Positions 16,003 through 40,827 of a stretch of DNA of 64,000 nt are shown here, piece after piece. Source of the DNA: an uncultured Dehalococcoidia bacterium (lineage in GTDB: Bacteria > Chloroflexota > Dehalococcoidia > DSTF01 > JALHUB01). A program made the translations under genes and the position numbers. Numbering within the stretch: the stretch's first letter is position 1; the number at the start of each line of letters is the position of its first letter. Under the pieces are notes generated by a model. That model was not told the origin of the DNA. It did not search any database and was given only the letters and a program-made list of their open reading frames with translations. The stretch spans positions 30,079 to 94,078 of the forward strand of contig CAZMGB010000003.1 in NCBI GenBank assembly GCA_964565775.1, in the 5' to 3' direction.

Positions 16003-16019
16003 GCCTGCACCAGGAAGGT

Positions 16020-16050: not shown

Positions 16051-16087
16051 GCCCGGCCTTCCCCTTCCGGTAACGGAGCACTAGGCG

Positions 16088-22447: not shown

Positions 22448-22640
22448 GGACGGGCTCCCTCCCTGTCTCCTTTCGCCCGCTGACGTATCCGGGACGAGGC
22501 TAGCACGAGCGCGAGGCCGACACATGCTTCGGCCGAGTCATTTGTTTGAGCTGTTGGATGCAACGGAGCCTGCATCCCGGCACGAACTCGCACCGACGCC
22601 CCCGGAGACCACGGCGCCCTCAGTGCTACCGGCGGGCGCC

Positions 22641-25428: not shown

Positions 25429-25611
25429 CCCCGCCTTCGCGACCGCTCAGGGGGACGCGGTATCCACCTTCCGCATCTCCATCCGAAGGAGTAGGCGAGG
25501 CTACACACACTTTAGGGGGTCGCGCCCGCGATGGGCGTCGCCCAAAGCCGGTATATGTCGAAGTAAAGGCTGTATCTTGGCGTAGGGTGCTGCCGGCGGA
25601 GGACGAAGGCG

Positions 25612-26271: not shown

Positions 26272-28025
26272 CTCGCCTCAGTCCCATTCTGGAAAGGAAG
26301 CTCTATGTGTAGGCGTGTCCCCTGTTCGGGCCCCGACTGTACATCCATCGTTCCACCGAAGAGGGAGGCGCGTTCCCGCATTCCCAGCAGTCCCAGGCCG
26401 ACCTCGCCCGAGCGCCGACGCCTTAGGCGCGCGATGTCGAAGCCGACGCCATCATCCTCTACATCGGCAATTACGCGCTCGTCCTCCTCCCACAGCCGGA
26501 TGCTCATCGTCTCTGCCCCGGCATGACGAACGGTGTTGTTAACCGCCTCCTGAACGATGCGGAACAGGGCCGTCTCCATCTCCTGGGGCAGGCGGCGCCT
26601 CAGGCCGGTGGCGTCCCAGCGCAGAGTCACGCCGGCCTCCTCAAGGCGTTCGGCTGTGAACGACCGCAGAGCAGGAACAAGGCCCAGGTCATCGAGGGCG
26701 CTGGGCCGCAGGCCGAGCACCGCCTTGCGCACCTCGCTGATGGCCCCGATCATGAGGTTTCGAACCTCGGCTATCTGCTTCCGGGTCTTCGCCCCCGCCC
26801 GAAGCCCCTCCTCAATGGCCCCCAACTGTACAAGGACAGCGGAGAGCGACTGTATGGCTTCATCGTGCAGCTCTCGGGCGATGCGCTTGCGCTCCTCTTC
26901 CTCGGCGGAGATGACTTTGGCCAGCAGCTCGCCGCGCAGGCGCTCCTTCCGCTGCAGCTCCTCGTACAGGAGGGCATTCTCCAGCGCCACGCCGAGCTGG
27001 TTTCCCACGGCACCGAGGAACTCAACCTCCTCCGCGCCAGGGCGCAACCCGGGAGGAAAGGCCAGGACCAGGGCGCCCACGGTGCGGGACTTGGCCGCCA
27101 GAGGCACGCTCACCAGCCACGGCCCACCACCGTCCGCCTCGCCGGTACGGGGGCCGGGTGGAGGGGGCAAACGCTGAGAGACGGGGCGCCGGCTCTGAAT
27201 CGCCTGTTTGGCGATCTCTAGCCTCTCGCCGGCACCATCGGATAGATCGCCCTGGCTCACGCGCAGCGTCGGCTCCTGCCCTGCCGCATCGGCCACGAAG
27301 ACGGCGGCGCCCCTGACGTTGGTCACCTCCAGCAGTGTCGACAGCACGTCGACGAGCATGACATCCGGGTCGAGGGACTGGGACGCCTTCTCGCCGGTGG
27401 AGATCATGATGCGCAGGCCGCGGCTCTGCTCCAGGGCCTCTGCCTCACGCCGTGCCCGCTGGGTGACCTCGCGCCGCTGCTCCGCCGCGAGGTACGCCCC
27501 GAGAAGCCCTACCAGCAAGAAGACAACACCACGCAGAGCCAGCTCGCCTATCTCCAAGACTCCCCCGCCCAGCCACAAGGCTCCGACGTAGCTCAAGAGG
27601 GCTAGACCGATGGTAGAGAGGACGGCCCACAGGGCCAGCGCGGCGGCAGCGAAGAGGACTACGGGCACGTACGTCAAATAGAGTTCAGGGGGTTCGGACT
27701 TGGCCAGTAGCACGACCGCCGAGTTGAAAAGGAGCAGAAGGCCCGTCCAGCCGTAGAACGGCCAGGCGTTGGCAGCGCCTCCCACGGCGCGTCGCCAGGC
27801 CGGCGAGTAGGTGAGAAGGTTGGCCGCCGCAGCCACAGCGAGAAGCCCGGCCAGCCCGCCGAGGTGCAGCGGTCCGTCGTCTCGATGGTCCAGGACGATC
27901 ACCAGGAGCAGCGCGGCAATGGTGATCCAAGCGATGCTGCTGGCCACCGTCGCCAGCCGCAGCCGAAAGGCAGCGTGCAAAGACCGCTCTACGGGCACAA
28001 CGTCATGAGCCAAGACCGTGTCCAT
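26268..28025 (-). CDS. Membrane sensor histidine kinase (multi-TM N-terminus, GAF, HisKA_3, HATPase_c)
   Basis: About six TM helices. A GAF-like domain. H-box '[22 protein letters not shown]'. '[16 protein letters not shown]'. 4-nt overlap with the downstream RR. Confidence 0.85.
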
Positions 28026-28430
28026 TCCGCGGCAGGCCGCACAACATGGCCGGGCACTGCCCCGCGAATCCGAGCGTCACGGGCGCAAGGCCAGGGTGAG
28101 TCCCGCCCTGGATACGCAGAAGCATACAAGAAAGGGTGAATGCCCGTCCAACGCGACATGCAACCAGGATACACCCTCGCCAGTCCACTTGTCGGCCCCT
28201 TCGGACGCTACAGATAAGACACTAGAGAAGGATACTGCCTCCCCTTCCTAGAATAGTCTCTTTGGGTGATAGTCCTTCGATGCACGCGTTCGTATCTTGA
28301 TTGTGACAGACCGATCACGTGGATTGGGCATCTGCCGTCATGGCCCCGCCTCCGATTACCTGACCCGTCCAGTGCCGATGGCCTTCGCCCCGAGCCCTGG
28401 ACATACCATTCACCTAGGAGGGCAGCAGCC
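28026..28430 (+). promoter_or_regulatory. Upstream non-coding region of the ccm operon (lower GC; SD AGGAGG before ccmE)
   Basis: 405-nt gap. 'AGGAGGGCAGCAGCCATGG' is the ribosome-binding site at 28414-28433. Confidence 0.3.
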
Positions 28431-28892
28431 ATGGAATCGTACAGGGTAAGGGCGGAGGAGGCGCCGCCCGCGTCACGCCCTCGCCGTCCACTCTTCATGC
28501 GGGGTCGATTCCTCATCGCCGGGCTGGTTCTTGCGGGCGCCCTCGGATACCTCATCTATGCGGGGGTGCAGAGCGCATCCATGTACTACTTGAGTGTCAG
28601 CGAGCTGACAACCCGAGGCGAAGCAGCCTACACAGAGGATGTCCGCCTGAGCGGGACTGTCATGGAAGGCTCTGTCCTCCAGGACTCCTCCAGTATGATT
28701 GTCGACTTCGTGGTGACGGACGGCCAGAGCTCCTTGCCCGTCCGGTACGAGGGCGTTCTCCCTGACGCCTTCAAGCCGGGCTCCGACGTAGTGGTGGAGG
28801 GGCGGCTCCTGCCCTCCGGGACCTTTCGCGCCTCCACGCTGTTGGCCAAGTGTCCCAGCAAGTACGAGCCAGCCAAGCCAGAGACGAGCTAG
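28431..28892 (+). CDS. ccmE: Cytochrome c maturation haem chaperone CcmE, CXXXY variant
   Basis: N-terminal TM, OB-fold region 'VDFVVTDGQSSLPVRYEGVLPDAFKPGSDVVVEGRL'. 'LAKCPSKYEP' stands in place of the canonical 'LAKHDENYTP' (Cys codon at 28851). Confidence 0.85.
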   Translation: MESYRVRAEEAPPASRPRRPLFMRGRFLIAGLVLAGALGYLIYAGVQSASMYYLSVSELTTRGEAAYTEDVRLSGTVMEGSVLQDSSSMIVDFVVTDGQSSLPVRYEGVLPDAFKPGSDVVVEGRLLPSGTFRASTLLAKCPSKYEPAKPETS

Positions 28893-28910
28893 AGAGGACG
28901 CGCGACCGGA

Positions 28911-30905
28911 GTGGCTGACATCGGGCACGCGGCTCTGCTGGTCGGGCTGATCATGGCCGCCTATGCGGCGGTCAGCTCCCTCGTGGCGGCCCGCTCTGGC
29001 AACGGGGAGTTGTGGCAGAGCGCCCGCAACGGCGCGTTCGCGGCGTTTGCGCTCACGAGCCTGGCTTCCGGGGCGCTCCTGTACGCCCTCTTCACCCACG
29101 ACTTCAGCATCCGATACGTTGCCGAATACTCCAGCTCAAACCTGGCCCCGATATACATCCTTTCCGCATGGTGGGCCGGTCTTGAGGGCTCCCTGCTGCT
29201 CTGGTGCTGGCTGCTGGCGGTGTTTACAGCGCTGGTGCTGCTCCAGACGCAGCGGCAGAACGTTCGACTGGCTCCCTACATCACCGCAACCATGACAGGG
29301 CTCCTAGCCTTCTTCCTGGGCCTCGTGATATTCACCGCCAACCCATTCGAACGGCTTCCCCAGCCCGCCGCCGAAGGCCTGGGCCTGAACCCGCTGCTCG
29401 AAAACCCGGGCATGATCATCCACCCGCCGGCGCTCTACCTCGGGTTCGTAGGCTTCAGCGTCCCCTTCGCCTTCGCCGTAGCCGCGTTGGTCACCGGACG
29501 CGTCGATGACCAGTGGATCCGCTCGAGTCGCCGCTGGACGCTCGTGGCGTGGCTCTTTCTCGGGCTGGGGAACCTGCTCGGCGCGCAGTGGGCATACGTG
29601 GAGCTGGGCTGGGGAGGCTTCTGGGGCTGGGACCCCGTGGAGAACGCCTCCTTCATGCCCTGGCTCACCGGCACGGCATTCCTGCACTCAATCATGATCC
29701 AGCAACGACGGGGAATGCTGAAGGTCTGGAACATGCTCCTCATCATCGCCACCTTCAGCCTCTGTCTGTTCGGGACCATGGTGACCCGAAGCGGCCTCCT
29801 CTCGTCGGTGCACGCGTTCTCGGGCTCCGCCATGGGGCCTCTGCTCATCTTCCTCATCGCCGTGGTGGCACTGGGCTCTCTATGGCTTCTCTGGAAGAGG
29901 CTGCCCTTGCTGCGAAGCGAGGAGCACCTCGACTCGTTCGTCTCCCGCGAGGCCTCCTTCCTTTTCAACAACGTGCTCCTTGTGGGCGCGGCCTTCGCCA
30001 TCTTCTGGGGGACGATCTTCCCCCTGCTTTCTGAGGTGGTGCAGGGAACGCGAAGCACGGTCGGGCCTTCCTTCTTCGAGCAGGTCACGGGGCCGATCTT
30101 CCTGGCGATACTCGTGCTCCTGGGAGTGTGCCCCCGGCTCGGCTGGCGGAAAGCCTCCGCGAGGAATCTGCTTGGCAGCCTTGTCGTGCCGGTAGCGGCC
30201 GGCCTCACGGTCGCTGTCCTGCTGTACGCTCGAGGCCTGCGACCGCTGCACGCGGTGATAGCGTTCGGCGTCTTCGTGTTCGCTGGCACGGTCATCCTCG
30301 CCGAGCTGTACCGGACGCTGCGGCCCCGGCAGGCGACGGGCCCGACGCACTGGCTCTCCACCCTTCCCAGGCTCTTCGCCGCGAATCGGTCTCGCTTCAC
30401 GGCCTTCATTGCCCACGCCGGAGTACTGCTTCTGGCCATGGGTATCCTGGCTTCCATCACATACAGCGAGAGCGTCGAGGCGACGCTGGCGCCGGGGGAG
30501 AGCGCGCGCATCCAGGAGTACGAGCTGACCTTCTTGGGGCTGAGCCAGTCCAACGCGCCCGACCAGACGGTCGTCTCCGCTGAGCTTGCGGTTCAGGACA
30601 ACGGGAAGCCCTCCGGCACCATGACAGCGGAGAAGAACTTCCACCGGACCTACCAGAACCCGGTGACCGAAGTAGGAATCCGTAGCACCCCCATCGAGGA
30701 CCTCTATGTCGTGCTCGGTAACTTGAACGAGGACGGCTCAGCGAGCTTCCGCTTCATCGTCAATCCGCTCGTGATGTGGCTGTGGATCGGTGGCGGAATC
30801 ATCATTGCCGGCACGGCGATCGCCCTCTGGCCCGATCGATACGCGGAGCGGGCCTTCCGCTGGCGCCCAAGAGAGACAGCGGAAATGGAGCTTGGTCGTG
30901 TCTAG
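28911..30905 (+). CDS. ccmF: Cytochrome c-type biogenesis protein CcmF (haem lyase)
   Basis: Multi-TM protein with the WWD domain 'WGGFWGWDPVENASFMPWL'. 664 aa. GTG start. Confidence 0.9.
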   Translation: MADIGHAALLVGLIMAAYAAVSSLVAARSGNGELWQSARNGAFAAFALTSLASGALLYALFTHDFSIRYVAEYSSSNLAPIYILSAWWAGLEGSLLLWCWLLAVFTALVLLQTQRQNVRLAPYITATMTGLLAFFLGLVIFTANPFERLPQPAAEGLGLNPLLENPGMIIHPPALYLGFVGFSVPFAFAVAALVTGRVDDQWIRSSRRWTLVAWLFLGLGNLLGAQWAYVELGWGGFWGWDPVENASFMPWLTGTAFLHSIMIQQRRGMLKVWNMLLIIATFSLCLFGTMVTRSGLLSSVHAFSGSAMGPLLIFLIAVVALGSLWLLWKRLPLLRSEEHLDSFVSREASFLFNNVLLVGAAFAIFWGTIFPLLSEVVQGTRSTVGPSFFEQVTGPIFLAILVLLGVCPRLGWRKASARNLLGSLVVPVAAGLTVAVLLYARGLRPLHAVIAFGVFVFAGTVILAELYRTLRPRQATGPTHWLSTLPRLFAANRSRFTAFIAHAGVLLLAMGILASITYSESVEATLAPGESARIQEYELTFLGLSQSNAPDQTVVSAELAVQDNGKPSGTMTAEKNFHRTYQNPVTEVGIRSTPIEDLYVVLGNLNEDGSASFRFIVNPLVMWLWIGGGIIIAGTAIALWPDRYAERAFRWRPRETAEMELGRV

Positions 30906-31395
30906 ATGGCTGATCGCTCCGCTCGTCCTGGCGCTCCTGTTCGCCCTCGCCCAGCCGGAGACCCCGGTGGCGTACGGCGCGGACCCGACCGATGTGGAGG
31001 CGATAACCTCGGAACTGGTTTGCCCCTGCTCCACCAACCTGTCGGTGGCCGCCTGCCAGAAGTCCATCGAGTGCCCCCTCGCGGCCAAGATGGAGAGCCT
31101 AGCCGACGAGCTCGCCACGTCGGGGATGAGCACCAGAGACGCATTGGACTACTTCGTGGAGATATACGGCGACTCGATCCTCGTATCACCGAGAAAGGAG
31201 GGCTTCGCTCTCTCCGCCTGGGCGGTGCCTTTCATCGGTGTGGGCCTCGGCATCGCCGCCATCTCCTGGCTGTCCTGGAAATGGACCCGCCAGCGACGCG
31301 GCGCGGTCCCCGCGACGTCACAAGGCGACACCGGCGAGCCCGACCTGGCGGCCTACCGCAAGCGCGTGGAGCGAGACCTGGAGCAGCTCGGATGA
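30898..31395 (+). CDS. CcmH/CycL-like cytochrome c biogenesis protein (thiol-redox motif variant LVCPC...C)
   Basis: Signal peptide. 'ELVCPCSTNLSVAACQKSIECP' stands in place of LRCxxC. C-terminal TM anchor. In the canonical position after ccmF. The GTG start overlaps the ccmF stop. Confidence 0.5.
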   Translation: MSRWLIAPLVLALLFALAQPETPVAYGADPTDVEAITSELVCPCSTNLSVAACQKSIECPLAAKMESLADELATSGMSTRDALDYFVEIYGDSILVSPRKEGFALSAWAVPFIGVGLGIAAISWLSWKWTRQRRGAVPATSQGDTGEPDLAAYRKRVERDLEQLG

Positions 31396-31405
31396 GAGGC
31401 AACAG

Positions 31406-31798
31406 ATGGATTCGGTAGCAGCGTTCTTTCTAATGATCGTGGCGTTCGTCGCCATAGGCTACCCCCTGCTGCGACCCGACCACAGCCGCGCCCTGCCCGT
31501 CGATCAGGAAGGGCCGCCGGACGACCTGGAACGTGAGCGCGATGCCGCCTACCGCGCAATTAAGGAGCTGGAGACCGAGCACCGCCTCGGCCACCTCTCG
31601 ACGGAAGACTATGAGGAGCTGCGCGGGCAGTACGTAGAACGGGCCGCCCGCATCCTCAAGCGTCTGGACGCCTCCAGGGCGGCACCGGCCCGCCGCGCCC
31701 GCGCGAAAGCGCCGACCTGCCCGGAGTGCGGGACACGGGGGCATCGACGCGACCGCTTCTGCGGCGCCTGCGGCCACGTGTTGAGGGTAGCGTCATGA
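31406..31798 (+). CDS. Small membrane protein with N-terminal TM helix and C-terminal zinc ribbon (CPECG...CGACG)
   Basis: 'FFLMIVAFVAIGYPLL' TM helix. Two CxxC pairs at the C-terminus. Embedded in the ccm operon. Same architecture class as 3253-4155. Confidence 0.5.
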   Translation: MDSVAAFFLMIVAFVAIGYPLLRPDHSRALPVDQEGPPDDLERERDAAYRAIKELETEHRLGHLSTEDYEELRGQYVERAARILKRLDASRAAPARRARAKAPTCPECGTRGHRRDRFCGACGHVLRVAS

Positions 31799-32850
31799 AG
31801 CGTTGGCTACCGGCGATTGGAGCACTGCTGCTACTCATGCTCGCGCAGGTGCCGGGGGCGGCCGCCGAGGACGGGGAGACGGGCAGCATCGCGGGCCGCG
31901 TGCTCGACGGCACACAGGGGGGAACCCCGGTCGCCGGCCAGGACGTGGTGCTCCAGGGGGTGCGCCACAGCGACGAGGCGACCATCCTTCCCGTGCAGGT
32001 TACGCAGACCGACCCCCAAGGTAACTTCCGTTTCGACGGACTGCCGGTTTCGGAGGAGAACTCATTCCTGGTCTTCGTGACGTACGACAACGTCGAGTAC
32101 GGAAGCAAAGACGTCAAGCTCACCGCGGAAGAGCCCTCGGCGGACCTCGAGATGGAGGTATACGGATCCACGACCGCCGACGACCAGATCCGCGTGTCCC
32201 TGGACCACATCGTGATCGAGGCCGACGCCCAGGCCCAGGTGCTTAGCGTCCTCGAGGTGTTCCAAGTGCTGAACGAGGGCGACCGCGCCTATGTCGGCGA
32301 GAGCGACAACACCGACAGTTCCCCTACCCTCCAGTTGTCTCTACCGGAGGGCGCCACGCAGGTGAGCGTGATAAGCGGGGTGACGTCTCAGAACCTGGTG
32401 CCATCAGCGGCAGGCCTAGCCGACACCACGCCCGTAGTACCGGGAGAGAAGGAGGTCGCCCTGGGCTATGAGCTCCCATACGCTGAGTCCGAGCTGCTCC
32501 TGCAGAAGACTCTCTACTACCCGACGGACAGGCTTGCGATCCTGGTCCAGGACGCTGGCTTCACCATCGACAGCCCGGCGCTCTCGGCGCCCCAACCCAC
32601 GGACATGGGCGAGGAACGCTACCTCCTTCTGACCGGCGAGTCGCTGGCGGCGGGCCAGAGCATCGAAGTGTCGCTCAGTGACCTGCCCACCGCAAGCTCG
32701 AGCGGGGGTCGGCCCGACGTTCTCTGGCCGCTCATGGGCGCAGGCCTGGCGGTGGCCCTCGGCATGGCGGTGCTCTACCCTCGCCTGCGCCGACGCCTGC
32801 GACGGCCGGAGAGCGACGAGCAGCACTGGGCATCGGGGGACCAGCCGTGA
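31795..32850 (+). CDS. Secreted protein with CarboxypepD_reg-like N-terminal domain and C-terminal TM anchor, hypothetical
   Basis: Signal peptide 'MKRWLPAIGALLLLMLAQVPGAAA'. 'GSIAGRVLDGTQGGTPVAGQDVVLQG...TDPQGNFRFDGLP'. C-terminal 'LWPLMGAGLAVALGMAVLY'. ATGA overlap with the upstream gene. Confidence 0.55.
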   Translation: MKRWLPAIGALLLLMLAQVPGAAAEDGETGSIAGRVLDGTQGGTPVAGQDVVLQGVRHSDEATILPVQVTQTDPQGNFRFDGLPVSEENSFLVFVTYDNVEYGSKDVKLTAEEPSADLEMEVYGSTTADDQIRVSLDHIVIEADAQAQVLSVLEVFQVLNEGDRAYVGESDNTDSSPTLQLSLPEGATQVSVISGVTSQNLVPSAAGLADTTPVVPGEKEVALGYELPYAESELLLQKTLYYPTDRLAILVQDAGFTIDSPALSAPQPTDMGEERYLLLTGESLAAGQSIEVSLSDLPTASSSGGRPDVLWPLMGAGLAVALGMAVLYPRLRRRLRRPESDEQHWASGDQP

Positions 32851-33626
32851 GCGGGCCGACGACCGGCCGCGTTCGAAGCGGGGCAGCGCTGGGGCCGGCG
32901 CCGGGACTCCCGGCCGCGGCGGCGATTGAGGTAGACCGCTTGCACAAGACGTTCGGCCACCTGGCCGTCCTGCGGGGCCTGGACCTGCGAGTTCGGTCGG
33001 GCGAGCGCCTTCTCCTGGTAGGCCCCAACGGCTCGGGGAAGACGACGCTCCTCAAGATCCTGGCGACACTGATCCGCCCCAGCGGTGGTCGCGTCCGTGT
33101 TTGCGGCTTTGACGTCCGCCGGGACGCGGCCGCCGTTCGCCGCTGCGTGGGCGTCCTTTCCCACCAGACCTACCTCTACGGGGAGCTCACTGCCCTCGAG
33201 AACCTGAGCTTCTACAGAGACATGTACGGTATATCGAACGGACATCAGCGGCTCCCAGACCTACTTCGTCAGGTTGGACTGGAGCGGCGGGCGCACGTCC
33301 AGGTGCGGACACTCTCCCGAGGCATGCAGCAGCGGCTGGCCCTGGCGCGGGCGCTGCTCCACCGGCCGCCGGTTCTCCTCCTGGACGAACCGGACACCGG
33401 ACTCGACCAGAAGGCCGCTGCTATGCTCGGCGACCTGCTCTCGGCGGTAGCCGCCGAGGGCCGCACGACGGTACTCACCAGCCACAACCTGGAGCGGGGC
33501 CTGGCCCTGGCCGACCGGGTCGCTGTGTTGGCAGGCGGCCGCATCACGTTCGAGGCCGCGAAGGAAGAGCTCCATGCTGGAGACCTGGAGAAGGTTTACC
33601 ATCGCCTTGCCCGTGCCGCGGGCTGA
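32847..33626 (+). CDS. ccmA: Haem exporter ATP-binding protein CcmA (ABC ATPase)
   Basis: Walker A 'GPNGSGKTT'. ABC signature 'LSRGMQQRLALARAL'. Walker B 'LLLDEP'. Confidence 0.85.
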   Translation: MSGPTTGRVRSGAALGPAPGLPAAAAIEVDRLHKTFGHLAVLRGLDLRVRSGERLLLVGPNGSGKTTLLKILATLIRPSGGRVRVCGFDVRRDAAAVRRCVGVLSHQTYLYGELTALENLSFYRDMYGISNGHQRLPDLLRQVGLERRAHVQVRTLSRGMQQRLALARALLHRPPVLLLDEPDTGLDQKAAAMLGDLLSAVAAEGRTTVLTSHNLERGLALADRVAVLAGGRITFEAAKEELHAGDLEKVYHRLARAAG

Positions 33627-34317
33627 CCCGGCGCTGGTCGCGTACCTACGCCAGATAGCGGCGCTGGCCGCCAAGGACATCCGGTCCGAGCTGAGAAGCC
33701 GCCAGGTCGTCGGCACGACCGTGGTCTTCGCTTTGATGATCCTAGTCATCTTCAACTTCGCCTTCGACCTCGAGCGCTCGCAGATGGACAGGCTGGCCCC
33801 GCCCATGCTCTGGGTCGCCGTCACGCTGGCCGCCGTCCTCGGGCTGAACCACGTCTTTGGCAAAGAGAAGGAACAGGCGTCGCTGGAGGGCATCCTCCTG
33901 TGCCCGGCAGACCGCGGCGCGATCTACTTCGGCAAGCTGCTGGGGGCCCTTACCTTCACCACGGCCATGGAGGCAGCGGTCCTGCCCATCTTCGTAGTCT
34001 TCACCGACCAATCGATGTTCTCGGTAGGGCCGTTGCTGGCGCTTCTGCTGGGAACCGTGGGCTTTCTTGCCGTGGGCACTCTCTTCGCCGCCGTCAGCAG
34101 CAATGCGAGGACCCGCGAGATCCTCCTGCCCATCCTGCTCTTCCCCATCGCGACGCCGATCCTGGTGGCAGGGGTCGAGGTGACAGGCATGGGTCTGAGA
34201 GGAGAACCGTTCAGCGAGTTGGCCGGCTGGTTGGGGCTGCTGGCCGCCTTCGACCTCGTGTTCCTGGTTCTCTGCCCCATGCTGTTTGAGTACGTCGTGG
34301 AGGAGATGAGCCCCTGA
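33574..34317 (+). CDS. ccmB: Haem exporter protein CcmB (ABC permease); start uncertain (33574 or GTG 33613)
   Basis: Six TM helices. Position and size match CcmB. Overlaps the ccmA 3' end. Confidence 0.75.
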   Translation: MLETWRRFTIALPVPRADPALVAYLRQIAALAAKDIRSELRSRQVVGTTVVFALMILVIFNFAFDLERSQMDRLAPPMLWVAVTLAAVLGLNHVFGKEKEQASLEGILLCPADRGAIYFGKLLGALTFTTAMEAAVLPIFVVFTDQSMFSVGPLLALLLGTVGFLAVGTLFAAVSSNARTREILLPILLFPIATPILVAGVEVTGMGLRGEPFSELAGWLGLLAAFDLVFLVLCPMLFEYVVEEMSP

Positions 34318-34336
34318 GCGGCCCTGGCTAGGAGGG

Positions 34337-35077
34337 ATGTCGAGTATGATTTCATCGCATGCAACGAGCGTCCGCAGCCATGCGACGCTTGAGCGCGTTC
34401 AGCCCTGGCTTCTGGCGGCGTCATGCCTGTCCATCCTCGTGGCGCTCTATGCCGCTTTCGTCTACGCCCCTGAGGAAGCCACGATGGGACAAGTGCAGCG
34501 CATCTTCTACTTTCACGTGCCGGCCGCGTGGGTCGCTTTCCTGGCGTACTTCGGGGTCTTCGTCGCCGGGATTGGCTATCTGAAGACACGGCGGATGGGG
34601 TGGGACATCGTGGCCCGCTCCTCCGCCGAGATCGGCGTGCTTTTCACCACGCTCGCCCTGATCACGGGCTCTCTCTGGGCCAAGCCTGTCTGGGGCACTT
34701 GGTGGACGTGGGACCCGCGCCTCACCACCACGCTGGTGCTCTGGCTGATCTACGTGTCCTATCTCCTCCTGCGAAGCGCGCTCCCGGAGCCGGAGCGGCG
34801 TGCGGCCTTCGCCTCTGTGGTCGGCATCGTCGGATTCGTCGACGTGCCGATCGTATTCGGCTCGATACGGTGGTGGCGCACGATCCACCCCGTTGTCATG
34901 GACACCGGCGGCTTCGACCTGGCGCGTCCGATGCTCGTGGCGCTACTCGTGGCCCTGTCAGCATTCACCATCCTGTACCTGGCTCTCCTCTCGGTTCGCA
35001 TATCCCTGGAGCGCAGCAAGGAGGACCTGGAGCGGCTGAGGTACAAGGTGGGTCTCTACGAAGAAGAGGGGGTGTGA
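34337..35077 (+). CDS. ccmC: Haem exporter protein CcmC
   Basis: WWD motif 'WGTWWTWDPRLT'. 'YFHVPAAW'. Multi-TM. Confidence 0.85.
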   Translation: MSSMISSHATSVRSHATLERVQPWLLAASCLSILVALYAAFVYAPEEATMGQVQRIFYFHVPAAWVAFLAYFGVFVAGIGYLKTRRMGWDIVARSSAEIGVLFTTLALITGSLWAKPVWGTWWTWDPRLTTTLVLWLIYVSYLLLRSALPEPERRAAFASVVGIVGFVDVPIVFGSIRWWRTIHPVVMDTGGFDLARPMLVALLVALSAFTILYLALLSVRISLERSKEDLERLRYKVGLYEEEGV

Positions 35078-35079
35078 GG

Positions 35080-35328
35080 ATGGACAGCATTTGGTATCTG
35101 ACTCTGGCGTACGCCGTCATCTGGGTGGGCCTGTTCGCCTACCTGCTCAACCTAGCTCGGGAAGGACGGAGCATCCGCCAACAGATGGACCTACTGCGAG
35201 ACCTCGTCGATGGGAGCGGCATCGCATCCGAGATGGAGCTTCCAGCGGCGGAGACGTGGGAACAACAGCCGGAACCGACGACGACTGCCGCAAGACTCGG
35301 CGACGGCTGGCCGGCTCTGGAGCGCTGA
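35080..35328 (+). CDS. ccmD: Haem exporter protein CcmD (small single-TM)
   Basis: 'MDSIWYLTLAYAVIWVGLFAYLL'. 82 aa. Sits between ccmC and ccmG. Confidence 0.6.
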   Translation: MDSIWYLTLAYAVIWVGLFAYLLNLAREGRSIRQQMDLLRDLVDGSGIASEMELPAAETWEQQPEPTTTAARLGDGWPALER

Positions 35329-35329
35329 C

Positions 35330-35947
35330 GTGTCCGGGCCCAAAACCGACATCTCTGCCGACATGGCCGCCCGCCCCATGGGCGACGACGGCCTGGATAC
35401 GACTGAAGGGCAAGGCGGACTTCGGAGCTCGCTGAGATACGTGCCATTGGCCTTCGTGGGGCTCGTTGTGGTGGCGCTGCTTGCCCTTCTCCTCTACGGG
35501 GTCTTCGCGGGCGGCGGCGACGACACTCTCGCCGTGAGGAAGCGCCCTGCGCCTGATTTCGTGCTGTCCCTTTTCGACGGCCGGGAGATCAGCCTCGCCG
35601 ATTTCGCCGGCAAGGTGGTGGTCCTCAACTTCTGGGCCTCGTGGTGCGACCCCTGCGAAGCGGAGGCCCCGGTACTGGAGGACGGCTGGCAGGCGTACGC
35701 CGACCAGGGCGTCGCGGTCATCGGCGTGGACACGGACGATACAGACGAGGACGCCCGCGCCTTTATTGAGCGACATAACTTGACCTATTACAACGGCCCC
35801 GAGTCAGGCAACCTCTCGGTCAAGTACGGCGTGCTGGGACTGCCGGAGACCTACTTCATCGATCAGGAGGGGATGATCGTGCGGCGCTGGGTGGGCGAAA
35901 TCAGCGACGAGCAACTTGCGTCATTCGTGAAGGAGCTGCTCCCCTGA
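35330..35947 (+). CDS. ccmG: Thiol:disulfide oxidoreductase CcmG/DsbE/ResA (TlpA family thioredoxin)
   Basis: 'LNFWASWCDPCEAEAP' (WCxxC). TM anchor. The GTG start directly follows the ccmD stop. Confidence 0.85.
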   Translation: MSGPKTDISADMAARPMGDDGLDTTEGQGGLRSSLRYVPLAFVGLVVVALLALLLYGVFAGGGDDTLAVRKRPAPDFVLSLFDGREISLADFAGKVVVLNFWASWCDPCEAEAPVLEDGWQAYADQGVAVIGVDTDDTDEDARAFIERHNLTYYNGPESGNLSVKYGVLGLPETYFIDQEGMIVRRWVGEISDEQLASFVKELLP

Positions 35948-36018
35948 GCCCGGCAGTCGACGCACCGGGATGGGGGCTGGCCTTCGGGGCGGGGCTGATC
36001 TCCTCGCTGAGTCCCTGT

Positions 36019-36669
36019 GTGCTGCCGCTGATTCCCGTCTATATGGCCTACATCTCGGGCGTTTCGCTTCAGGGGGCGGGCCAGTCGAGTGGCCTCCGCA
36101 ACACTTTGGATGCCCTAAGCGCTACCCTGCTCTTCACGCTTGGCTTCACCTTTGTCTTCGTTGCTCTGGGCACCTCGGCTTCTCTCCTGGGAGGCGTCCT
36201 GGACGAGCACCGGCGTCTGCTCTACCAGATCTCCGGCGGCGTGATGGTGGTCATGGGGATTCTGATGGCGGGGCTGCTGCGGGTGCCCCTTCTCAAACGC
36301 GAGTACCGGCCGGCATTCAACGCGGCCTCCCTGGGCTCGACCGGCCCGGTGCTCTTTGGCATGGCCTTCGCACTGGGGTGGACGCCCTGCGTGGGCCCTG
36401 TGCTGGCCTCAGTTCTCTTCTACGCCGGTACCTCTGAGACCGCCGGCCAGGGAGGTCTCCTGCTCTTCGTCTACTCGCTCGGGTTCGCGCTGCCGCTGGT
36501 CATCGGCGGCGTGGCATGGGCGCACGGGCTGCGACTATCATCGTGGCTCCAGCGCTGCTACGGCAAGCTCACCCTGGCGGGCGGCATCCTCCTCATGGTG
36601 GTCGGCGCCCTCTTCATTGCGGACCAGTGGTACCGGGTGAACGTCTGGACGGACAAGCTGCTGGGTTAG
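36019..36669 (+). CDS. ccdA: Cytochrome c biogenesis transmembrane thiol-disulfide transporter CcdA/DsbD-core (N-terminus unresolved)
   Basis: 'LSPCVLPLIPVY' and 'GWTPCVGPVL' conserved Cys pairs. The in-frame upstream sequence continues as '...GWGLAFGAGLISSLSPC' without a canonical start; see finding. Confidence 0.8.
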   Translation: MLPLIPVYMAYISGVSLQGAGQSSGLRNTLDALSATLLFTLGFTFVFVALGTSASLLGGVLDEHRRLLYQISGGVMVVMGILMAGLLRVPLLKREYRPAFNAASLGSTGPVLFGMAFALGWTPCVGPVLASVLFYAGTSETAGQGGLLLFVYSLGFALPLVIGGVAWAHGLRLSSWLQRCYGKLTLAGGILLMVVGALFIADQWYRVNVWTDKLLG

Positions 36670-37178
36670 GCCGAGTGCTGGGAGCGCGGCCCAAGCGTGA
36701 GCCGGAAGGTGCAGGAGTTGGAGCCGGTCGCGACTGACTCCACTATCTCGATTGTCACCGGCCCGCCGTGGAACTGCTCCACCAGACTCCGCGTCCACTC
36801 CGCGGAGCAGGCGCACATCTTCGCGTCCAGATCGATGATTTTGCGTCGCACAAGCGGGCACATGCACTGGCCTTCGCGCTCCTCGCGCCACATGATTTCG
36901 TCCCCCGTCCGGGAGATCTCGATACGCTCCGGCCCGGCGCGGCGAAACCACTCGAGCATCCCATCCAGGTCGAGGTCGGTCGGCATGTTGGACACGCGCA
37001 GGAAGCGGGCGCGGCAGGCCGAAGCCATCTCCCCTGTCAGGGCGTTCAGGGATGACTCGTCAAGCGCGAAGATGCCACGAAAGAGTCCCCGGACAATATC
37101 GTCCTGGTGGGATCGGAGCAGTTCCTCAACGAACTCCTGCGATCTGTCGGCGCTCATGAGATGGTGGTCCTGCTTCAA
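36666..37178 (-). CDS. Hypothetical Cys-rich cytoplasmic protein (CMCP...CACS...C)
   Basis: 170-aa ORF with no TM helices and several Cys clusters. Function unknown. Confidence 0.4.
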   Translation of the reverse strand: MKQDHHLMSADRSQEFVEELLRSHQDDIVRGLFRGIFALDESSLNALTGEMASACRARFLRVSNMPTDLDLDGMLEWFRRAGPERIEISRTGDEIMWREEREGQCMCPLVRRKIIDLDAKMCACSAEWTRSLVEQFHGGPVTIEIVESVATGSNSCTFRLTLGPRSQHSA

Positions 37179-37180
37179 TT

Positions 37181-37192
37181 CTACATCTGTAG
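37181..37192. promoter_or_regulatory. Palindrome CTACA-TC-TGTAG at the start of the - strand gene 36666-37178 (operator-like)
   Basis: Read directly. Related 'ATCTGTAG' motifs recur at 37374-37386. Confidence 0.2.
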
Positions 37193-37637
37193 ACTACCAT
37201 GTGTCGTCAGCGACTTCCGGAGTTGCGGGGTGGCAATACCCCATCCGCATCTGGAACGCCGGCTGGCTGAACCGCCCACACGAGTTCTCCCTGGCCAGGC
37301 GTCGGATCAGATGTTGTCCTCTCCGGCGACGCGCTCGCCCCGGGGCCCGGGCTGCAGGGCGCGAGTATTCCATCTGTATCTGTAGGGTAGCCGCTGGGCT
37401 GATTCGGCCGGCCTCCGGTCTGGAGCGTGACCCTTTGGGGCCCACGAATTCGATCAGTATGGCTGTGATCCGTGCCGATCGAGTTCCTAGACCCGACAAG
37501 TGAGGCTCGCGAGGACGCCGTCTGCGCTCATCCAGTTAGATTCGGATTAGATTCCTGGCCCCCATAGGCGGGTTGGACGCGGGGGCGAATAGATGATAAA
37601 CTGAATCCAGTTACTCCACAGTACCGGGGGAGGGATC

Positions 37638-37973
37638 ATGGCCTACAAGGATCCGGCGGAACCGTTCACCAGGCTCAGCGCGGCTGAAGTGAGGCAGATG
37701 ATGGTGAACGGCGATGTCCAACTGATTGACGTGGGCGAGGCCAAGGAATATGGGCTGAAACACCTGCCGGGTGCCGTCCACATCCCCGTGGGCAAGGTCT
37801 ACGCCCGCCGCGATGAGCTGAGCGAGGACCGGGACATCGTTTTTGTCTGCCCCATTGGACAGCGCAGCGCCCTGGCCTGTGAGATGGCAGCGGCGGCGGG
37901 CCTCACGCGGCTCTACAACATGGAGGGTGGTATTGAGGCCTGGATCAAAGAAGGCTATCCCGTTGAGGAGTAG
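37638..37973 (+). CDS. Single-domain rhodanese-like sulfurtransferase
   Basis: SD 'GGGGGAGGG'. Active-site loop 'VCPIGQRS' (Cys-X4-Arg). About 110 aa. Confidence 0.8.
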   Translation: MAYKDPAEPFTRLSAAEVRQMMVNGDVQLIDVGEAKEYGLKHLPGAVHIPVGKVYARRDELSEDRDIVFVCPIGQRSALACEMAAAAGLTRLYNMEGGIEAWIKEGYPVEE

Positions 37974-38313
37974 AGCCGTTGCCGCTTTGGCCGTGCTCGA
38001 CGCCTGCTGGCCGCCGCGGCCTTCGCGCGGACCGAGCATGCCACTCGGTGGCTATGTTCGGGTGAGGCAACGTCTGCCAGACCGGCGGTCTCGTATGAGA
38101 CCTGCCGAGGATAGGGAGGCCAGACTGGAAAGCGGGACTCCCCCGACCGGGCTTCGAGGCCCTCCAGCCGGAACGGTGCCCACCTCGGACCGCCAGGTCA
38201 AAAGGGGAATTCCGGCTGGAGGGCGAGCTCGGGCTTCGCCGTCGGTCGCGGGCAACTGGGAACCGGGAGAGCGACATCAGCCAGCCTCGTTAGAAGGGAG
38301 GGGGTCTTAGCCG

Positions 38314-39240
<927 letters not shown>

Positions 39241-39549
39241 GGTAGTGTGCTGACATCCAGGGGGCCGGGCGCGGAGAGAGACCCGACGAGAAGTGTAGGT
39301 CACTTCCGTTGCGTGAGCGGCCAGGGCGCGGAACCGCGGTTGCGCTCGGCCCCTTCTTCGTTGGGGCGGGCGGGCCTCCCCAGCCCGGAGTCGTTCGCCT
39401 GGCATGAAGTCAAGGGCAGGAAAGATGTATCCTAGAGGGACATGACTATGCCTGCCGGGTAACCCCCTCGATACCCTGTCTTCGCTATCGTGTGGGGGAC
39501 AGGGACAGCCTGTCTATTCCTTTCGGCCACAAGATAAGGAGGCGCAAAC

Positions 39550-39921
39550 GTGTTCAAAGGTTGGCCGCCCTGCGACATCTGTGGCAAGCCTGTTGGCGAA
39601 AGGGATGGGACTCTCTCCGTCTGCTATCGCCGCATCGCCGCCTTCGACACGGCCCTCATGGAGTGGGAAAAGGAGCACCCTCACAAACTCGTCGACATGG
39701 GTTATCCTACCTTCCCCAATTCCGTTCCCTGGTTCTGGGGCCACAAGACCTGCTCCCCCGAAGCCTGCGATGGCAGCTGCAACTTCTGGATCGACGCCGT
39801 GACCCTGAACAGCGAGGGCAAAGTCCTCAACATGACCCTCCGCCTCCTGGAGAAGCCCTGGTTCCCAAACACCAATTGGGAACACGCCGTTCGCCGCCTA
39901 TATGACCTACCCCACGCCTAG
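39550..39921 (+). CDS. Hypothetical Cys-rich small protein
   Basis: SD 'AAGGAGG' 8 nt before the GTG. 'PPCDICGKPV...CYRR...CSPEACDGSCNFW'. No family recognised. Confidence 0.45.
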   Translation: MFKGWPPCDICGKPVGERDGTLSVCYRRIAAFDTALMEWEKEHPHKLVDMGYPTFPNSVPWFWGHKTCSPEACDGSCNFWIDAVTLNSEGKVLNMTLRLLEKPWFPNTNWEHAVRRLYDLPHA

Positions 39922-40533
39922 GAAGAATGCGACCGACCAAACGGGGCGGTTCTGAGATAGAGGAAGGCGCAGCAGAGCGATATTCCCTGTCCCTCAACGG
40001 AGCTGTGGGGTGCCAATACTCCATCCGTATCTGGGCACTTCGAACTGACCTTGTGCCTGGTACAAGAGCACAGGCCACGGATCCCTGAGCGGTGGCATCC
40101 GACCCTCTGTGTGATAGGCAGAAGTTCCCCGGTCCCCTTGCAGACCGCTCTGCGGCCAAGATAGAATCCCCTCGTCAGCCGATGGGCAGGGCGACTAGCG
40201 GATTCGCCCATATCCCAGGGTCTCTGGGTTGCCTCAGCACACTTCGGCAGGCAAGTTCATGGTCGATTGTTGTCGAAGGGACCCACAAGCCCTTGGCCGA
40301 GCCGCTAGGCAGACGATTCAAGAGGACAGGAGGCCCGAAAAGTCGCACCGCTTGAATCGACTCGCCGGGGAAGAGATCGCTGAATACAAAACAGGAGTCT
40401 GCCGCGGGATTTCTGCCCTGTTGAATGGGGTTCAAGAGGATGCGCGAAGACCCCTTCTCTTGGTTCTAGCGTGCCTGACGCATCGGCAGGCTCGTACGAG
40501 CAGCCAGTATGGCCCCGAATCCGGCACTCCGGC

Positions 40534-40692
40534 GGGCCCTCAAACCAGGGCGCCGGAGTCGGCTGGAAATCGGTCGGTTTCCGGCGGTCAAGACAGCGGA
40601 ATTCGAATCTGCGTTAGAGGCAGAAGGCTCGACCTCAAAACCCAGGACTTTTAATCCGGGTGTCCTGGGTTCGAGCCCCAGAGGGCCCACCA
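40534..40692 (+). ncRNA. tRNA-like structured element: perfect 7-nt complement (GGGCCCT) to the 3' acceptor strand lies 149 nt upstream of a canonical T-arm/acceptor/CCA terminus; not a canonical tRNA or recognisable tmRNA
   Basis: The 3' 45 nt fold as anticodon loop (CUUUUAA, Lys-UUU-like) through T-arm, AGGGCCC-A-CCA. The 5' region lacks a D-arm and has nested hairpins (GGCTCGA/TCGAGCC; CCCAGGA/TCCTGGG). A further 600 nt upstream (39922-40533) is ORF-poor and hairpin-rich. Confidence 0.35.
40648..40692 (+). repeat. 45-nt tRNA 3'-half-like direct repeat, copy 2 (identical to 712-756)
   Basis: 45/45 identity. Identity begins exactly at the first nucleotide of the anticodon-loop-like CUUUUAA and ends at CCA. 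Confidence 0.8.
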
Positions 40693-40827
40693 CCCCCAGA
40701 ATCGCCCCGAACCCGTAAGCAGCGACCCCTCCGGCACGCCTCAGACCGCCCCAAACGCGGGATGTGGATCCGGGCCTCTCGGACCGGCTCTCGACCGCGG
40801 TCTCTGTGGACGACAGGCAGCCTTGGC

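Follow-up and report, generated by a model that had tools for sequence, protein, structure and literature searches.

A displaced tRNA-Lys fragment as the probable right junction of a 40-kb integrated island in an uncultured Chloroflexota-like bacterium

Introduction

A region that holds no gene and closes with the last half of a tRNA can be read in several ways: as a structured RNA of its own, as a tRNA gene gone to ruin, or as a scar left by an element that inserted there. Positions 39922-40692 of the window (by which we mean the whole 64,000-nt stretch of DNA analyzed here) raise this question. The first-pass annotation proposed a novel, hairpin-rich structured RNA with a tRNA-like end and listed, among its alternatives, a highly degraded tRNA and the attP-derived end of an element. 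Here we argue that the terminal 45 nt (40648-40692) are probably a displaced 3′ fragment of tRNA-Lys(UUU), in which the segment of identity is the att core, and that they mark the right junction of an island of about 40 kb inserted by a tyrosine integrase. The last of those alternatives was essentially right: the end is an attR-type junction.

A gene-free region with a tRNA-like end

The claim that no gene lies in 39922-40692 was borne out. GC content is flat across codon phases (0.52-0.67, vs. third positions of 0.8-0.9 in the flanking genes), the 8 ORFs tested gave no Pfam match with E below 0.1, and an independent gene caller found zero genes on a Logan contig (L027) covering window positions 39922-40674. 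With codon periodicity, Pfam matches and gene calls all absent, a hidden protein gene or pseudogene was rejected. The tRNA-like end, for its part, is real:

40648..40692, + strand: copy 2, a 45-nt 3′ fragment of tRNA-Lys(UUU), the right island end; this is the T-arm, acceptor and CCA seen in the first-pass annotation

Its parts are a T-arm (CTGGG/TTCGAGC/CCCAG, 40665-40681), the 3′ strand of an acceptor stem (AGGGCCC, 40682-40688), an A, and the CCA that ends at 40692. As had been supposed, this is neither a normal tRNA nor a tmRNA: ARAGORN called 0 tRNA and 0 tmRNA genes in the window, no Rfam family matched the window at gathering thresholds, and a permissive Rfam search (E up to 10, 39700-40900) returned chance-level matches only and left the tRNA family itself unmatched. 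A functional tRNA gene is rejected with its missing cloverleaf (the place of the 5′ half is only about 44-47% identical to tRNA-Lys), as is a group I intron or other Rfam family. A tmRNA, one-piece or permuted, is rejected on both searches and on the lack of a tag reading frame and of G3-U70; the sequence ends as tRNA-Lys does, GGGCCCT, the sole candidate 5′ partner, would make G3-C70, and a GGATTCGAC-like motif seen in members of the metagenome family described below is one side of a local hairpin, its 3′ strand. An intron-containing or split tRNA was also rejected: the region has no 5′ half, and the GGGCCCT at 40534 occurs at chance level and has no D-arm after it.

How much structure the region holds is a separate matter. 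Taken as a whole, the region is only marginally hairpin-rich on the + strand (z = -1.8, with 2 of 20 shuffles folding equally well), and the - strand reaches z = -3.3; of the hairpins that had been listed, one fell away, its CCCTGGG strand being absent from the region. The sole subregion with an outstanding fold is 40515-40695 (z about -4.0 to -4.45), and this strength comes from a window-specific inverted repeat, AACCCAGGAC/GTCCTGGGTT together with GGCTCGA/TCGAGCC, which competes with the T-arm.

A single structured RNA of about 770 nt, given its tRNA-like end by pairing of 40534-40540 with 40682-40688, is in our judgment barely credible. The 7-nt complement is indeed present (GGGCCCT, 40534-40540) and is paired in one minimum-energy fold; in the homologous metagenome family described below the corresponding columns are 82% paired, with GGGC/GCCC in three of four sequences and one two-sided change, and the - strand fold counts on the same side. 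The significance attached to the complement did not hold, however: dinucleotide shuffling of the 726 nt upstream yields this 7-mer in 11.5% of cases, or in 41% when G-U pairs are allowed. It falls within the apex of a local hairpin that is stronger (ACTCCGGCG/CGCCGGAGT plus GCCCT/AGGGC). In two of three family sequences a G to C change in the 3′ strand is uncompensated by the partner, and the complement is absent from the native leaders of two intact tRNA-Lys genes (L001 and L002, below). Homologues elsewhere are limited to the last ~180 nt of the region, with nothing upstream of about 40500 conserved in the family (L004-L010), and, as noted, the region in its entirety folds unremarkably on the + strand.

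An exact repeat 40 kb upstream

What the first-pass annotation overlooked is that the last 45 nt of the region have a twin near the left edge of the window:

712..756, + strand: copy 1, a 45-nt 3′ fragment of tRNA-Lys(UUU), from anticodon loop to CCA, matching 40648-40692 exactly

The two copies form a direct repeat (45/45 identity, same orientation, spacing 39,936 nt) of a kind found in none of the shuffles; the window contains no third copy, and ARAGORN called no tRNA at copy 1. In two Chloroflexota MAGs (L001 and L002) the 45-mer corresponds base for base to positions 32-76 of an intact tRNA-Lys(UUU) gene; both genes were called by ARAGORN and scored by Rfam at 74 and 72 bits. The identity starts at the first base of the anticodon loop and ends with CCA. 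Two Logan short-read contigs (L003 and L027, SRR14802573), one per island end, both end inside the repeat. The end of the supposed 770-nt RNA is thus a duplicated tRNA-Lys(UUU) fragment, and the long-range acceptor stem is unsupported.

When an island integrates into a tRNA gene it splits the gene and restores it with its own sequence, leaving the displaced fragment as a marker of where the island ends (Islander, PMC4383910). An exact 45-nt tRNA-Lys repeat 40 kb upstream therefore points to copy 2 as the right-hand attachment site of an integrated island. We infer that strand exchange took place in or near the anticodon loop, in the "anticodon-centred" class of attachment sites; such sites, and tandem arrays of islands, are common (Islander, PMC4383910).

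Integrases and a tandem array at the left end

Copy 1 lies between two tyrosine integrase genes, both incomplete in the window:

1..660, + strand: int_A, a tyrosine integrase gene cut by the left edge of the window, with only its 3′ part inside (Pfam Phage_integrase, E = 5.1e-38)
757..919, + strand: island-side flank (P′ arm) from the repeat to int_B, 69-72% identical to the corresponding spacers of L018, L019 and L020
920..1402, + strand: int_B, a truncated tyrosine integrase gene of 160 aa with the N-terminal SAM-like domain only (Pfam Phage_int_SAM_1, E = 6.8e-7)

The gene int_A reads towards copy 1. Its best homologue is P0153 in locus L025 (full-length, 328 aa, 92% identity), whose gene ends 18 nt ahead of an identical 45-mer and has mobile-element-type genes on its 5′ side (ParB-like/DNA methylase, JAB, HTH). 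We assign int_A to a neighboring, left-hand island, and copy 1 is then the junction between that island and the 40-kb one. Copy 1 is no more than a tRNA fragment, and a further integrase gene stands before it. The window therefore probably shows an inner and a right-hand member of a tandem island array, with the intact tRNA-Lys gene further left, beyond the edge of the window. The lack of an intact tRNA-Lys in the window (ARAGORN) counts against the island reading, and L025 has no tRNA within 10 kb to the left of its int_A counterpart.

On the other side of copy 1, the integrase remnant and the conserved flank lie just inside the left repeat, as they do beside intact tRNA-Lys genes elsewhere, which speaks for an island. 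The homology of 757..919 to the spacers between tRNA-Lys and integrase in L018, L019 and L020 runs unbroken into the integrase coding start. Of these int_B homologues, the one in L018 follows an intact tRNA-Lys and the flank; in L019 a tRNA-Lys T-arm at the contig start is followed by the integrase, a relaxase and a coupling-protein-like gene; and in L020 a degenerate tRNA-like sequence precedes the flank and the integrase. The flank also contains a G+C-rich hairpin, GGAGCGC (788)/GCGCTCC (802), followed by TTTTCGGCTTT, which a terminator scan left uncalled, just under its T-run threshold.

Cargo and right-hand flank

Between int_B and the gene-free region lies the cargo, and beyond copy 2 the flank outside the island:

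1321..39921, no strand: island cargo (Pfam scans, GC)
40693..40720, + strand: flank right of the repeat, CCCCCAGAATCGCCCCGAACCCGTAAGC, conserved in L016, L017 and L025
40828..41481, - strand: acetate/succinate transporter gene of the GPR1/FUN34/YaaH family (Pfam E = 8.2e-39)

According to Pfam the cargo has a set of respiratory genes: multihaem cytochromes, cytochrome b subunits, and cytochrome c maturation genes for CcmF, CcmB, a CcmC-like protein and an ABC ATPase. It further holds DsbD, a thioredoxin-like protein, three two-component systems and a 1389-aa FG-GAP/multihaem protein, as well as a rhodanese, a PLP-dependent enzyme and a 123-aa protein. No gene for transfer or excision turned up among the ORFs scanned in the 39-kb cargo, and int_B is truncated, which counts against the island reading in that any mobility is historical at best; given the truncation, the island is probably immobile now. 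GC content is 65.7% in the island vs. 63.9% to its right (2-kb windows, Mann-Whitney p = 2e-4). The YaaH-family gene, the first beyond the island, is convergent with the tRNA fragment.

Relatives depart at the repeat

If copy 2 is a junction, close relatives might differ from the window precisely there, and they do: presence/absence polymorphism among L016, L017 and L025 has its breakpoints at the repeat. L016 and L017 are 92-94% identical to the window over 40648-42575 (the YaaH-family protein is 100% identical on both), and this homology breaks off exactly at 40648. Their tRNA fragment has decayed by 2 substitutions and 1 insertion, as expected of a displaced fragment without selection. More distant yaaH homologues (L011-L014, 83-88% identity) lie in loci that are not syntenic and lack the ~130-nt block found left of copy 2 (below).

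L025 contains the same two junctions 583 nt apart, with the 39-kb cytochrome cargo absent: its order is int_A, a perfect 45-mer, 36 nt of the same flank, about 500 nt, a second 45-mer (2 mismatches), and the 28-nt right flank. It aligns with the window over 40645-40720 and diverges after 40720. The sequence left of its right-hand repeat is a decaying tRNA 5′ part, which Rfam still scores as a partial tRNA (11571-11622, 32.8 bits, model positions 10-63).

What lies before copy 2, and a resident gene as its improbable source

The 726 nt before copy 2 look like a patchwork of decayed island-end DNA, in which four stretches can be told apart:

40003..40156, + strand: fragment of a small dispersed repeat, starting with the 31-nt motif CTGTGGGGTGCCAATACTCCATCCGTATCTG (metagenome locus L007)
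40137..40204, + strand: promoter-like remnant, TTGCAG, 18 nt, TAGAAT, and transcript start (CCCCTCGTCAG...), by alignment to L025
40205..40515, no strand: about 310 nt of non-coding DNA with no homologue in the fetched loci, no coding periodicity and no Pfam match
40516..40647, + strand: block of about 130 nt derived from the upstream region of a tRNA-Lys gene, homologous to the L001 leader and to L004-L010

The 31-nt motif has three copies in L007, one of them inverted, and one copy aligns over about 124 nt with the window; this repeat was the only match when 39922-40520 was compared by blastn with all fetched loci. The promoter-like remnant, missed by a promoter scan for its poor -35 hexamer, matches L025 (11433-11501) with a local alignment z of 7.3, which exceeds 200 of 200 shuffles. 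Its counterpart in L025 and L016 (TTGATG-18-TACAAT-CCCCTCGTCAGATGTCA) stands ahead of the right-hand tRNA-Lys fragment. The 130-nt block consists of a leader-like part with a 5′ hairpin (~40516-40616) followed by about 31 nt (~40617-40647) that sit where the 5′ half of the tRNA belongs, yet are not tRNA-like. Its upstream part aligns with the native tRNA-Lys leader in L001 (upstream-only z = 8.1), and the left flank of L016 shows marginal similarity to native leaders (z up to 4.5). A highly degraded tRNA, as the first-pass annotation had it, is therefore half of the truth: non-tRNA sequence has taken the place of the 5′ half, and the 3′ half is perfect.

A side observation concerns GAATC/GATTC, which occurs 7 times in 39922-40760 against 1.05 expected, making this the densest 839-nt stretch of the window for a motif that was picked post hoc; the cluster could represent putative integrase-binding sites.

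The native upstream homology left of copy 2 would also fit a second, resident tRNA-Lys gene that decayed in place on the yaaH side. Under this explanation, which we consider improbable, copy 1 would be no more than the fragment displaced by the left-hand island, and the 39 kb would be ordinary chromosome or an unrelated insertion. Besides the alignment to the L001 leader, it can draw on L025, where a near-complete pseudo-tRNA with its own promoter stands at the corresponding position, 583 nt beyond the first fragment, and on the first 36-38 nt after copy 1, which follow not only the L025 45-mer but also the intact tRNA-Lys of L002 (96%), where an integrase is absent. Several features argue otherwise. 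First, the 3′ 45 nt are perfect and the ~31 nt before them reach only the low identity given above, with the boundary exactly at the anticodon loop; so sharp a boundary speaks for recombination rather than decay by point mutation. Second, close relatives depart from the window exactly from 40648 leftwards. Third, the flank of copy 1 is unbroken into int_B, as in three unrelated tRNA-Lys/integrase contigs. Fourth, the block in the window is of the L004-L010 type and not of the promoter/leader type of the closest relatives, which survives in the window only as the 68-nt remnant at 40137-40204.

The integrated island thus remains our preferred reading, and the block suggests how its end could have formed. 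As the simplest origin, we infer that the island-side arms derive from a whole tRNA-Lys transcription unit, comprising promoter, leader and tRNA. Islands of this kind would carry a copy of the unit as their attachment region; on integration the right junction would receive promoter, leader and 5′ half from the island and the 3′ half from the host, and this redundant tRNA-Lys unit would decay. L025 (with its partial tRNA score), L016 and the window may represent stages of this decay, the ~130-nt block being a tRNA-Lys leader in origin whose tRNA 5′ half was lost or replaced.

A family of promoter-leader-tRNA-half units

Homologues of the block were found in seven metagenome loci (L004-L010, five distinct), none with a tRNA, and all in the order promoter, leader, non-tRNA segment, tRNA-Lys 3′ half. 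What they have in common covers about 220 nt: it begins with the promoter and stops exactly at CCA, and the flanks are unrelated. In the leader, with the search pattern set aside, the window is 61-72% identical to them; in the pseudo-5′ half the figure is 45-55%. Searches of viral, plasmid and phage collections gave no further members (only chance or plain tRNA-Lys matches), and at the protein level there is no synteny between the left-hand genes of the window and L004-L010.

Such a family raises a different possibility: that 40516-40692 belong to a functional, tRNA-Lys-derived small-RNA family of about 180-190 nt (with its own sigma-70 promoter, a 5′-terminal hairpin, a non-tRNA middle and a tRNA-Lys 3′ half), or to a transcribed part of an attachment site. 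The product might be a tRNA mimic, or the promoter might act outward like Pcirc of ICEclc, a precedent for promoters that face outward from the end of an island (PMC5812530). We regard this as unlikely, though it has more in its favor than a resident gene.

Conservation argues for function, and it also weighs against the island reading as a matter of pure decay: the family promoter (TTGAAA/TTGAAG-17-TACAAT/TGCAAT) is kept while the spacers diverge, and the family loci, like L016 and L025, direct good -35 and -10 boxes at the repeat. The anticodon stays Lys (UUU or CUU). In the alignment of the five sequences, pairing stands at 96% in the 5′ hairpin, with 3 two-sided changes, and at 95% in the T-arm, with 2, a covariation score reached in 1 of 500 shuffles at what is a very low depth. 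Between the close strains L009 and L006, the promoter and RNA block differ by 4 changes in 198 nt vs. 10 in 106 nt of adjacent spacer (p = 0.007, or 0.054 once adjacent changes are merged), a slower rate that hints at selection on the block, which pure decay would leave unexplained.

These numbers describe five distinct sequences from closely related samples, with 26 positions fixed by the search pattern, and the T-arm covariation may just follow differing host tRNAs. Member folds are not unusual (z = -1.45, -1.65 and -1.93). The copy in the window lacks the TTGAAA-17-TACAAT promoter (nothing at the threshold of the promoter scan) and its middle part is poorly conserved, which together with the empty viral, plasmid and phage searches weakens the case for a functional RNA here; the G+C-rich hairpin and T-run between copy 1 and int_B argue against read-through into the integrase gene.

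Our assessment of the unit itself is correspondingly guarded. A small family of tRNA-Lys-derived units under some constraint appears to exist, and there is a small chance, judged from sequence comparison, that the L004-L010 unit (~180-190 nt), decayed at 40516-40692, is a functional tRNA-Lys-derived gene family of uncultured Chloroflexota. It would then be either a tRNA-half mimic RNA or an island-carried, promoter-bearing attachment-site module that is also a secondary integration target. Were the constraint genuine, it would mean a new tRNA-derived RNA or a new attachment-site architecture.

Meaning and comparison with known systems

For annotation, reading the "tRNA-like RNA" as an attachment-site scar removes a false lead. 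It also delimits, in an uncultured Chloroflexota-like bacterium, an island of about 40 kb whose cargo includes genes for multihaem cytochromes and cytochrome c maturation; this suggests horizontal exchange of respiratory or electron-transfer capacity, with tRNA-Lys as the hotspot.

Compared with tRNA, tmRNA and tRNA-like RNAs in Rfam, the end has a T-arm, acceptor 3′ strand and CCA identical to tRNA-Lys, but the acceptor 5′ strand, D-arm, tag frame and G3-U70 are all missing. Closer parallels are found among integrative elements. In some of these the attachment site has an extended part, or almost the whole, of the tRNA gene that they target, as in SLP1 of Streptomyces with tRNA-Tyr. The resemblance lies in the arm beside the repeat, which holds sequence of the rest of the tRNA gene: L025 has a partial tRNA, and the window and L004-L010 keep the leader. 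Unlike in SLP1-type elements, the homology here reaches the promoter and a leader of about 115 nt, and the 5′ half of the tRNA is degenerate.

In ICEclc the integrase gene is driven, once the element is circular, by Pcirc, an outward promoter at the island end (PMC5812530). By sequence, the family and relatives have a comparable predicted arrangement, with an arm promoter pointing across the attachment site, just beyond which the integrase gene of this island type lies in the same orientation. The window copy differs in having no good promoter and a terminator-like hairpin between the repeat and the integrase gene.

The islands cataloged by Islander differ from this locus in three respects: the window has no intact tRNA-Lys, the integrase is truncated and the scanned ORFs include no transfer or excision genes, and the cargo is respiratory (multihaem cytochromes, cytochrome c maturation) in an uncultured Chloroflexota-like genome. 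In the rest they agree: the 40-kb segment is bordered by an exact direct repeat of a tRNA 3′ end that begins in the anticodon loop; just within one border lies a tyrosine integrase gene; relatives are polymorphic at the repeat boundary; and a second integrase with a second fragment points to a tandem array. The feature at the right end is of an ordinary and well-known kind.

Displaced 3′ fragments of tRNA-Lys

The feature at 39922-40692 is a displaced tRNA-gene fragment with a decayed attachment arm, ending a tRNA-Lys-targeted genomic island. Its final 45 nt, CTTTTAATCCGGGTGTCCTGGGTTCGAGCCCCAGAGGGCCCACCA, are present in two copies, at 712-756 (copy 1) and 40648-40692 (copy 2), which are identical, share one orientation and are spaced 39,936 nt apart; the window has no third copy. 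A search of one genome per species matched the 45-mer in two Chloroflexota MAGs, each time within an intact tRNA-Lys(UUU), called by ARAGORN, whose 3′ part it forms (L001 1064-1139, Rfam tRNA 74 bits; L002 4791-4866, 72 bits). In tRNA numbering it runs from position 32, the first anticodon-loop base, to position 76, the end of the CCA. The match to the real tRNA extends over 48 nt for copy 2 and 45 nt for copy 1, and no tRNA likeness is seen upstream of it at either copy. Both native genes have a sigma-70-like promoter (L001 900-1063, TTGAGT-18-TAGAAT; L002 4650-4790, a -10 box TAGAAT preceded by TTGTTG) some 95-115 nt ahead of the mature 5′ end, implying an unusually long, partly conserved tRNA-Lys 5′ leader.

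The first-pass annotation had proposed a hairpin-rich, novel structured RNA or, alternatively, the attP-derived end of an element, and is partly confirmed. There is indeed no coding signal: GC is flat across the three codon phases (0.52-0.67; third-position GC of neighbouring genes is 0.8-0.9), ORFs inside the interval have no Pfam matches, and a gene caller found no gene in this part of L027, an independent short-read contig from the same sample that spans window 38434-40674. The tRNA-like 3′ end is present (T-arm CTGGG-TTCGAGC-CCCAG, acceptor 3′ strand AGGGCCC, A, CCA) and ARAGORN found no tRNA or tmRNA in the entire window. Rfam at gathering thresholds matched no family in the window, and a permissive search of 39700-40900 gave chance-level matches only. 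The structural claims fared worse. One listed hairpin partner, CCCTGGG, is absent from the region; folding is not unusual on the + strand (z = -1.8), the - strand giving z = -3.3; and the 7-nt acceptor complement, GGGCCCT at 40534, exists but is at chance level, since 11.5% of dinucleotide-shuffled versions of the upstream sequence contain it (41% with G-U pairs allowed). The structured-RNA reading is unsupported, and the attP alternative is correct in substance.

Left end of the island

1-660: int_A, 3′ part of a tyrosine integrase gene, reading towards copy 1 (Pfam E = 5e-38)
712-756: copy 1
757-919: flank between copy 1 and int_B, 163 nt
920-1402: int_B, truncated integrase gene with the N-terminal SAM-like domain only

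Homologues of int_B in other contigs are arranged exactly as at copy 1. In L018 an intact tRNA-Lys(UUU) is followed by the flank and integrase; L019 starts inside the tRNA-Lys T-arm and continues through flank, integrase, relaxase and a coupling-protein-like gene, and its element is an integrative mobilisable or conjugative element; L020 has a degenerate tRNA-like sequence, flank and integrase. Window 712-1000 is 69-72% identical to the flank and integrase start of these loci. Together, arrangement and identity identify copy 1, 757-919 and int_B as the integrase-proximal end of a tRNA-Lys-specific island. Because copy 1 is only a fragment and has a second integrase gene alongside, the window most likely holds an inner island of a tandem array, and an intact tRNA-Lys should lie beyond its left edge.

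In the int_A type of island the integrase frame is directed into the attachment site and nearly touches it, ending 51 nt before the 45-nt core in the window (1-711) and 18 nt before it in the relative L025 (10001-11005). The L020 tRNA-like sequence (1448-1525), adjoining the int_B homologue, is chimeric: a good 5′ half, with an anticodon loop (CTTCTAA) that would read UCU (Arg), is joined to a degenerate T-arm and acceptor. ARAGORN makes no call here. The sequence may record integration without restoration of the target.

Right end and its relatives

The first gene right of the island (40828-41481, - strand) has a yaaH-family product that two JGI contigs, L016 and L017, encode with 100% identity. 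Their DNA is 92-94% identical to window 40648-42575, and the alignment breaks off precisely where the repeat begins on its left, at 40648. Their tRNA-Lys fragment carries two substitutions and one insertion, no tRNA is called at it, and the DNA before it differs from the window. L025, from the same sample as L017, reads:

10001-10987: full-length int_A homologue, 92% identity
11006-11050: perfect 45-mer, 18 nt past the int_A homologue
next 36 nt: flank as after window copy 1
about 500 nt: unrelated sequence
11589-11633: second 45-mer, 2 mismatches
next 28 nt: right flank as window 40693-40720

This layout places the window's left and right junctions only 583 nt apart in a relative, which lacks the 39-kb cargo between them. 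In sample SRR14802573, the Logan short-read contigs L003 and L027 break within the repeat on both sides. The L025 DNA before the right-hand fragment is a partial tRNA in Rfam (32.8 bits, model positions 10-63), and its L016 equivalent is more decayed. L025 11434-11633 holds a pseudo-tRNA-Lys that has a promoter of its own (TTGATG-18-TACAAT), a ~100-nt leader, insertions in the 5′ half and an A-to-G change in the anticodon loop.

In the window, the 726 nt before copy 2 contain:

40003 to ~40156: small-dispersed-repeat-like stretch; its opening 31-nt motif occurs three times in L007, once inverted
40137-40204: promoter and transcript-start homologue, TTGCAG-18 nt-TAGAAT-CCCCTCGTCAG...
40205-40515: no homologue in any of the loci compared
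40516-40647: tRNA-Lys leader-homologous block (upstream-only alignment to L001, z = 8.1)

The promoter homologue has its counterpart before the right-hand fragment of L025 and L016 (TTGATG-18-TACAAT-CCCCTCGTCAGATGTCA; alignment z = 7.3). The leader block matches the ~115 nt between promoter and intact tRNA-Lys in L001 and is closer still to seven metagenome loci, five of them distinct (L004-L010). On the simplest reading, such islands would carry a copy of the whole tRNA-Lys transcription unit as attachment region; integration would join island promoter, leader and 5′ half to the host 3′ half at the right junction, and the copy there, being redundant, would decay. Read this way, the 726 nt look like the leftovers of two attachment arms plus a repeat fragment, a pattern that integrations and deletions following one another at a hotspot could produce.

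The 31-32-nt motif C(C)TGTGGGGTGCCAATAYTNCATCCGTATCTG (window 40003-40033; L007 209-240, 1763-1794 and, inverted, 2088-2118) recurs in unrelated contigs; two L007 copies form an inverted pair about 355 nt apart, and the motif resembles a terminal repeat from a small non-autonomous transposable element. GAATC/GATTC, a motif picked after looking, occurs 7 times in the 839 nt of 39922-40760 (1.05 expected), the window's densest such stretch, and also at 673 and 769; CGAATCT is found 39 nt ahead of copy 1, 13 nt past it and 44 nt ahead of copy 2. Integrase or an accessory protein may bind at such sites.

Island cargo

Pfam scans of the cargo (1321-39921) found several multihaem cytochromes (NapC/NirT-like and MtrC/MtrF-like domains among them), cytochrome b subunits of b561 type, cytochrome c maturation genes (CcmF/CcmB/CcmC-like), DsbD, a thioredoxin-like protein, three two-component systems (LuxR-type), a rhodanese and a PLP-dependent enzyme. 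This coherent respiratory set points to an electron-transfer module gained by horizontal transfer. Scanning of cargo ORFs revealed no transfer genes. GC is 65.7% in the island and 63.9% to its right (p = 2e-4).

In a 1389-aa protein (17763-21932), paired-CXXCH multihaem motifs occur together with seven or more FG-GAP repeats, to which the 78-nt internal DNA repeats D2 (20297-21574) correspond. A 64-nt repeat family (8341-8404, 23244-23307, 26206-26269; 63-77% identity) sits at the starts of three response-regulator genes on the - strand, indicating that the island's two-component systems are paralogous.

A family of tRNA-Lys-derived units

L004-L010 were retrieved by a pattern taken from the leader. 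They share about 220 nt that end exactly at CCA between unrelated flanks: a TTGAAA-17-TACAAT promoter, a 5′ hairpin, the leader, ~31 nt in the place of the tRNA 5′ half yet not tRNA-like, and a tRNA-Lys-like 3′ half. No tRNA is found in any of the seven. The window copy lacks the family promoter and is 61-72% identical to them in the leader outside the search pattern, 45-55% in the pseudo-5′ half and 76-82% in the 3′ half.

Helix pairing in a five-sequence alignment
5′ hairpin: 96% of cells paired, 3 two-sided changes
T-arm: 95% of cells paired, 2 two-sided changes
Long-range helix of the first-pass annotation: 82% of cells paired, 1 two-sided change

The observed helix score in this alignment was reached by 1 of 500 shuffles. 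In the long-range helix, two of three family sequences have a 3′-strand change without partner compensation, and the 5′ strand sits apically in a stronger local hairpin. Fold energies of family members are unremarkable (z = -1.45, -1.65, -1.93); the window's better score (z = -4.0) is due to a window-specific inverted repeat, which competes with the T-arm. The close strains L009 and L006 show 4 differences over 198 nt of promoter and RNA block and 10 over 106 nt of the spacer next to it (p = 0.007; 0.054 with adjacent changes merged). Sequence comparison thus hints at constraint on the family, which may act on either RNA or DNA sites. That these units are functional in their own right is improbable. 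As a small family of promoter, leader and tRNA 3′ half, they are the residual novelty here.

L006 (1165) and L009 (824), from strains 97% identical, share the left flank and the unit up to the T-loop GGGTTC and then diverge; farther on, L006 carries inverted, diverged copies of L009 downstream DNA, placing a rearrangement breakpoint within the unit's T-loop.

Comparison with known islands

In ICEclc, an outward promoter drives the integrase gene after circularisation (PMC5812530). Here, a G+C-rich hairpin and T-run between repeat and int_B argue against simple read-through. In the usual course of events, a tRNA gene split by integration is restored by the island, and the displaced fragment is left as a marker of the island's end; anticodon-loop-centred attachment sites and tandem arrays are both common (PMC4383910). 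The window's repeat and integrase and the junctions of its relatives fit this course, and the window supplies a new example of a well-known kind of island end.
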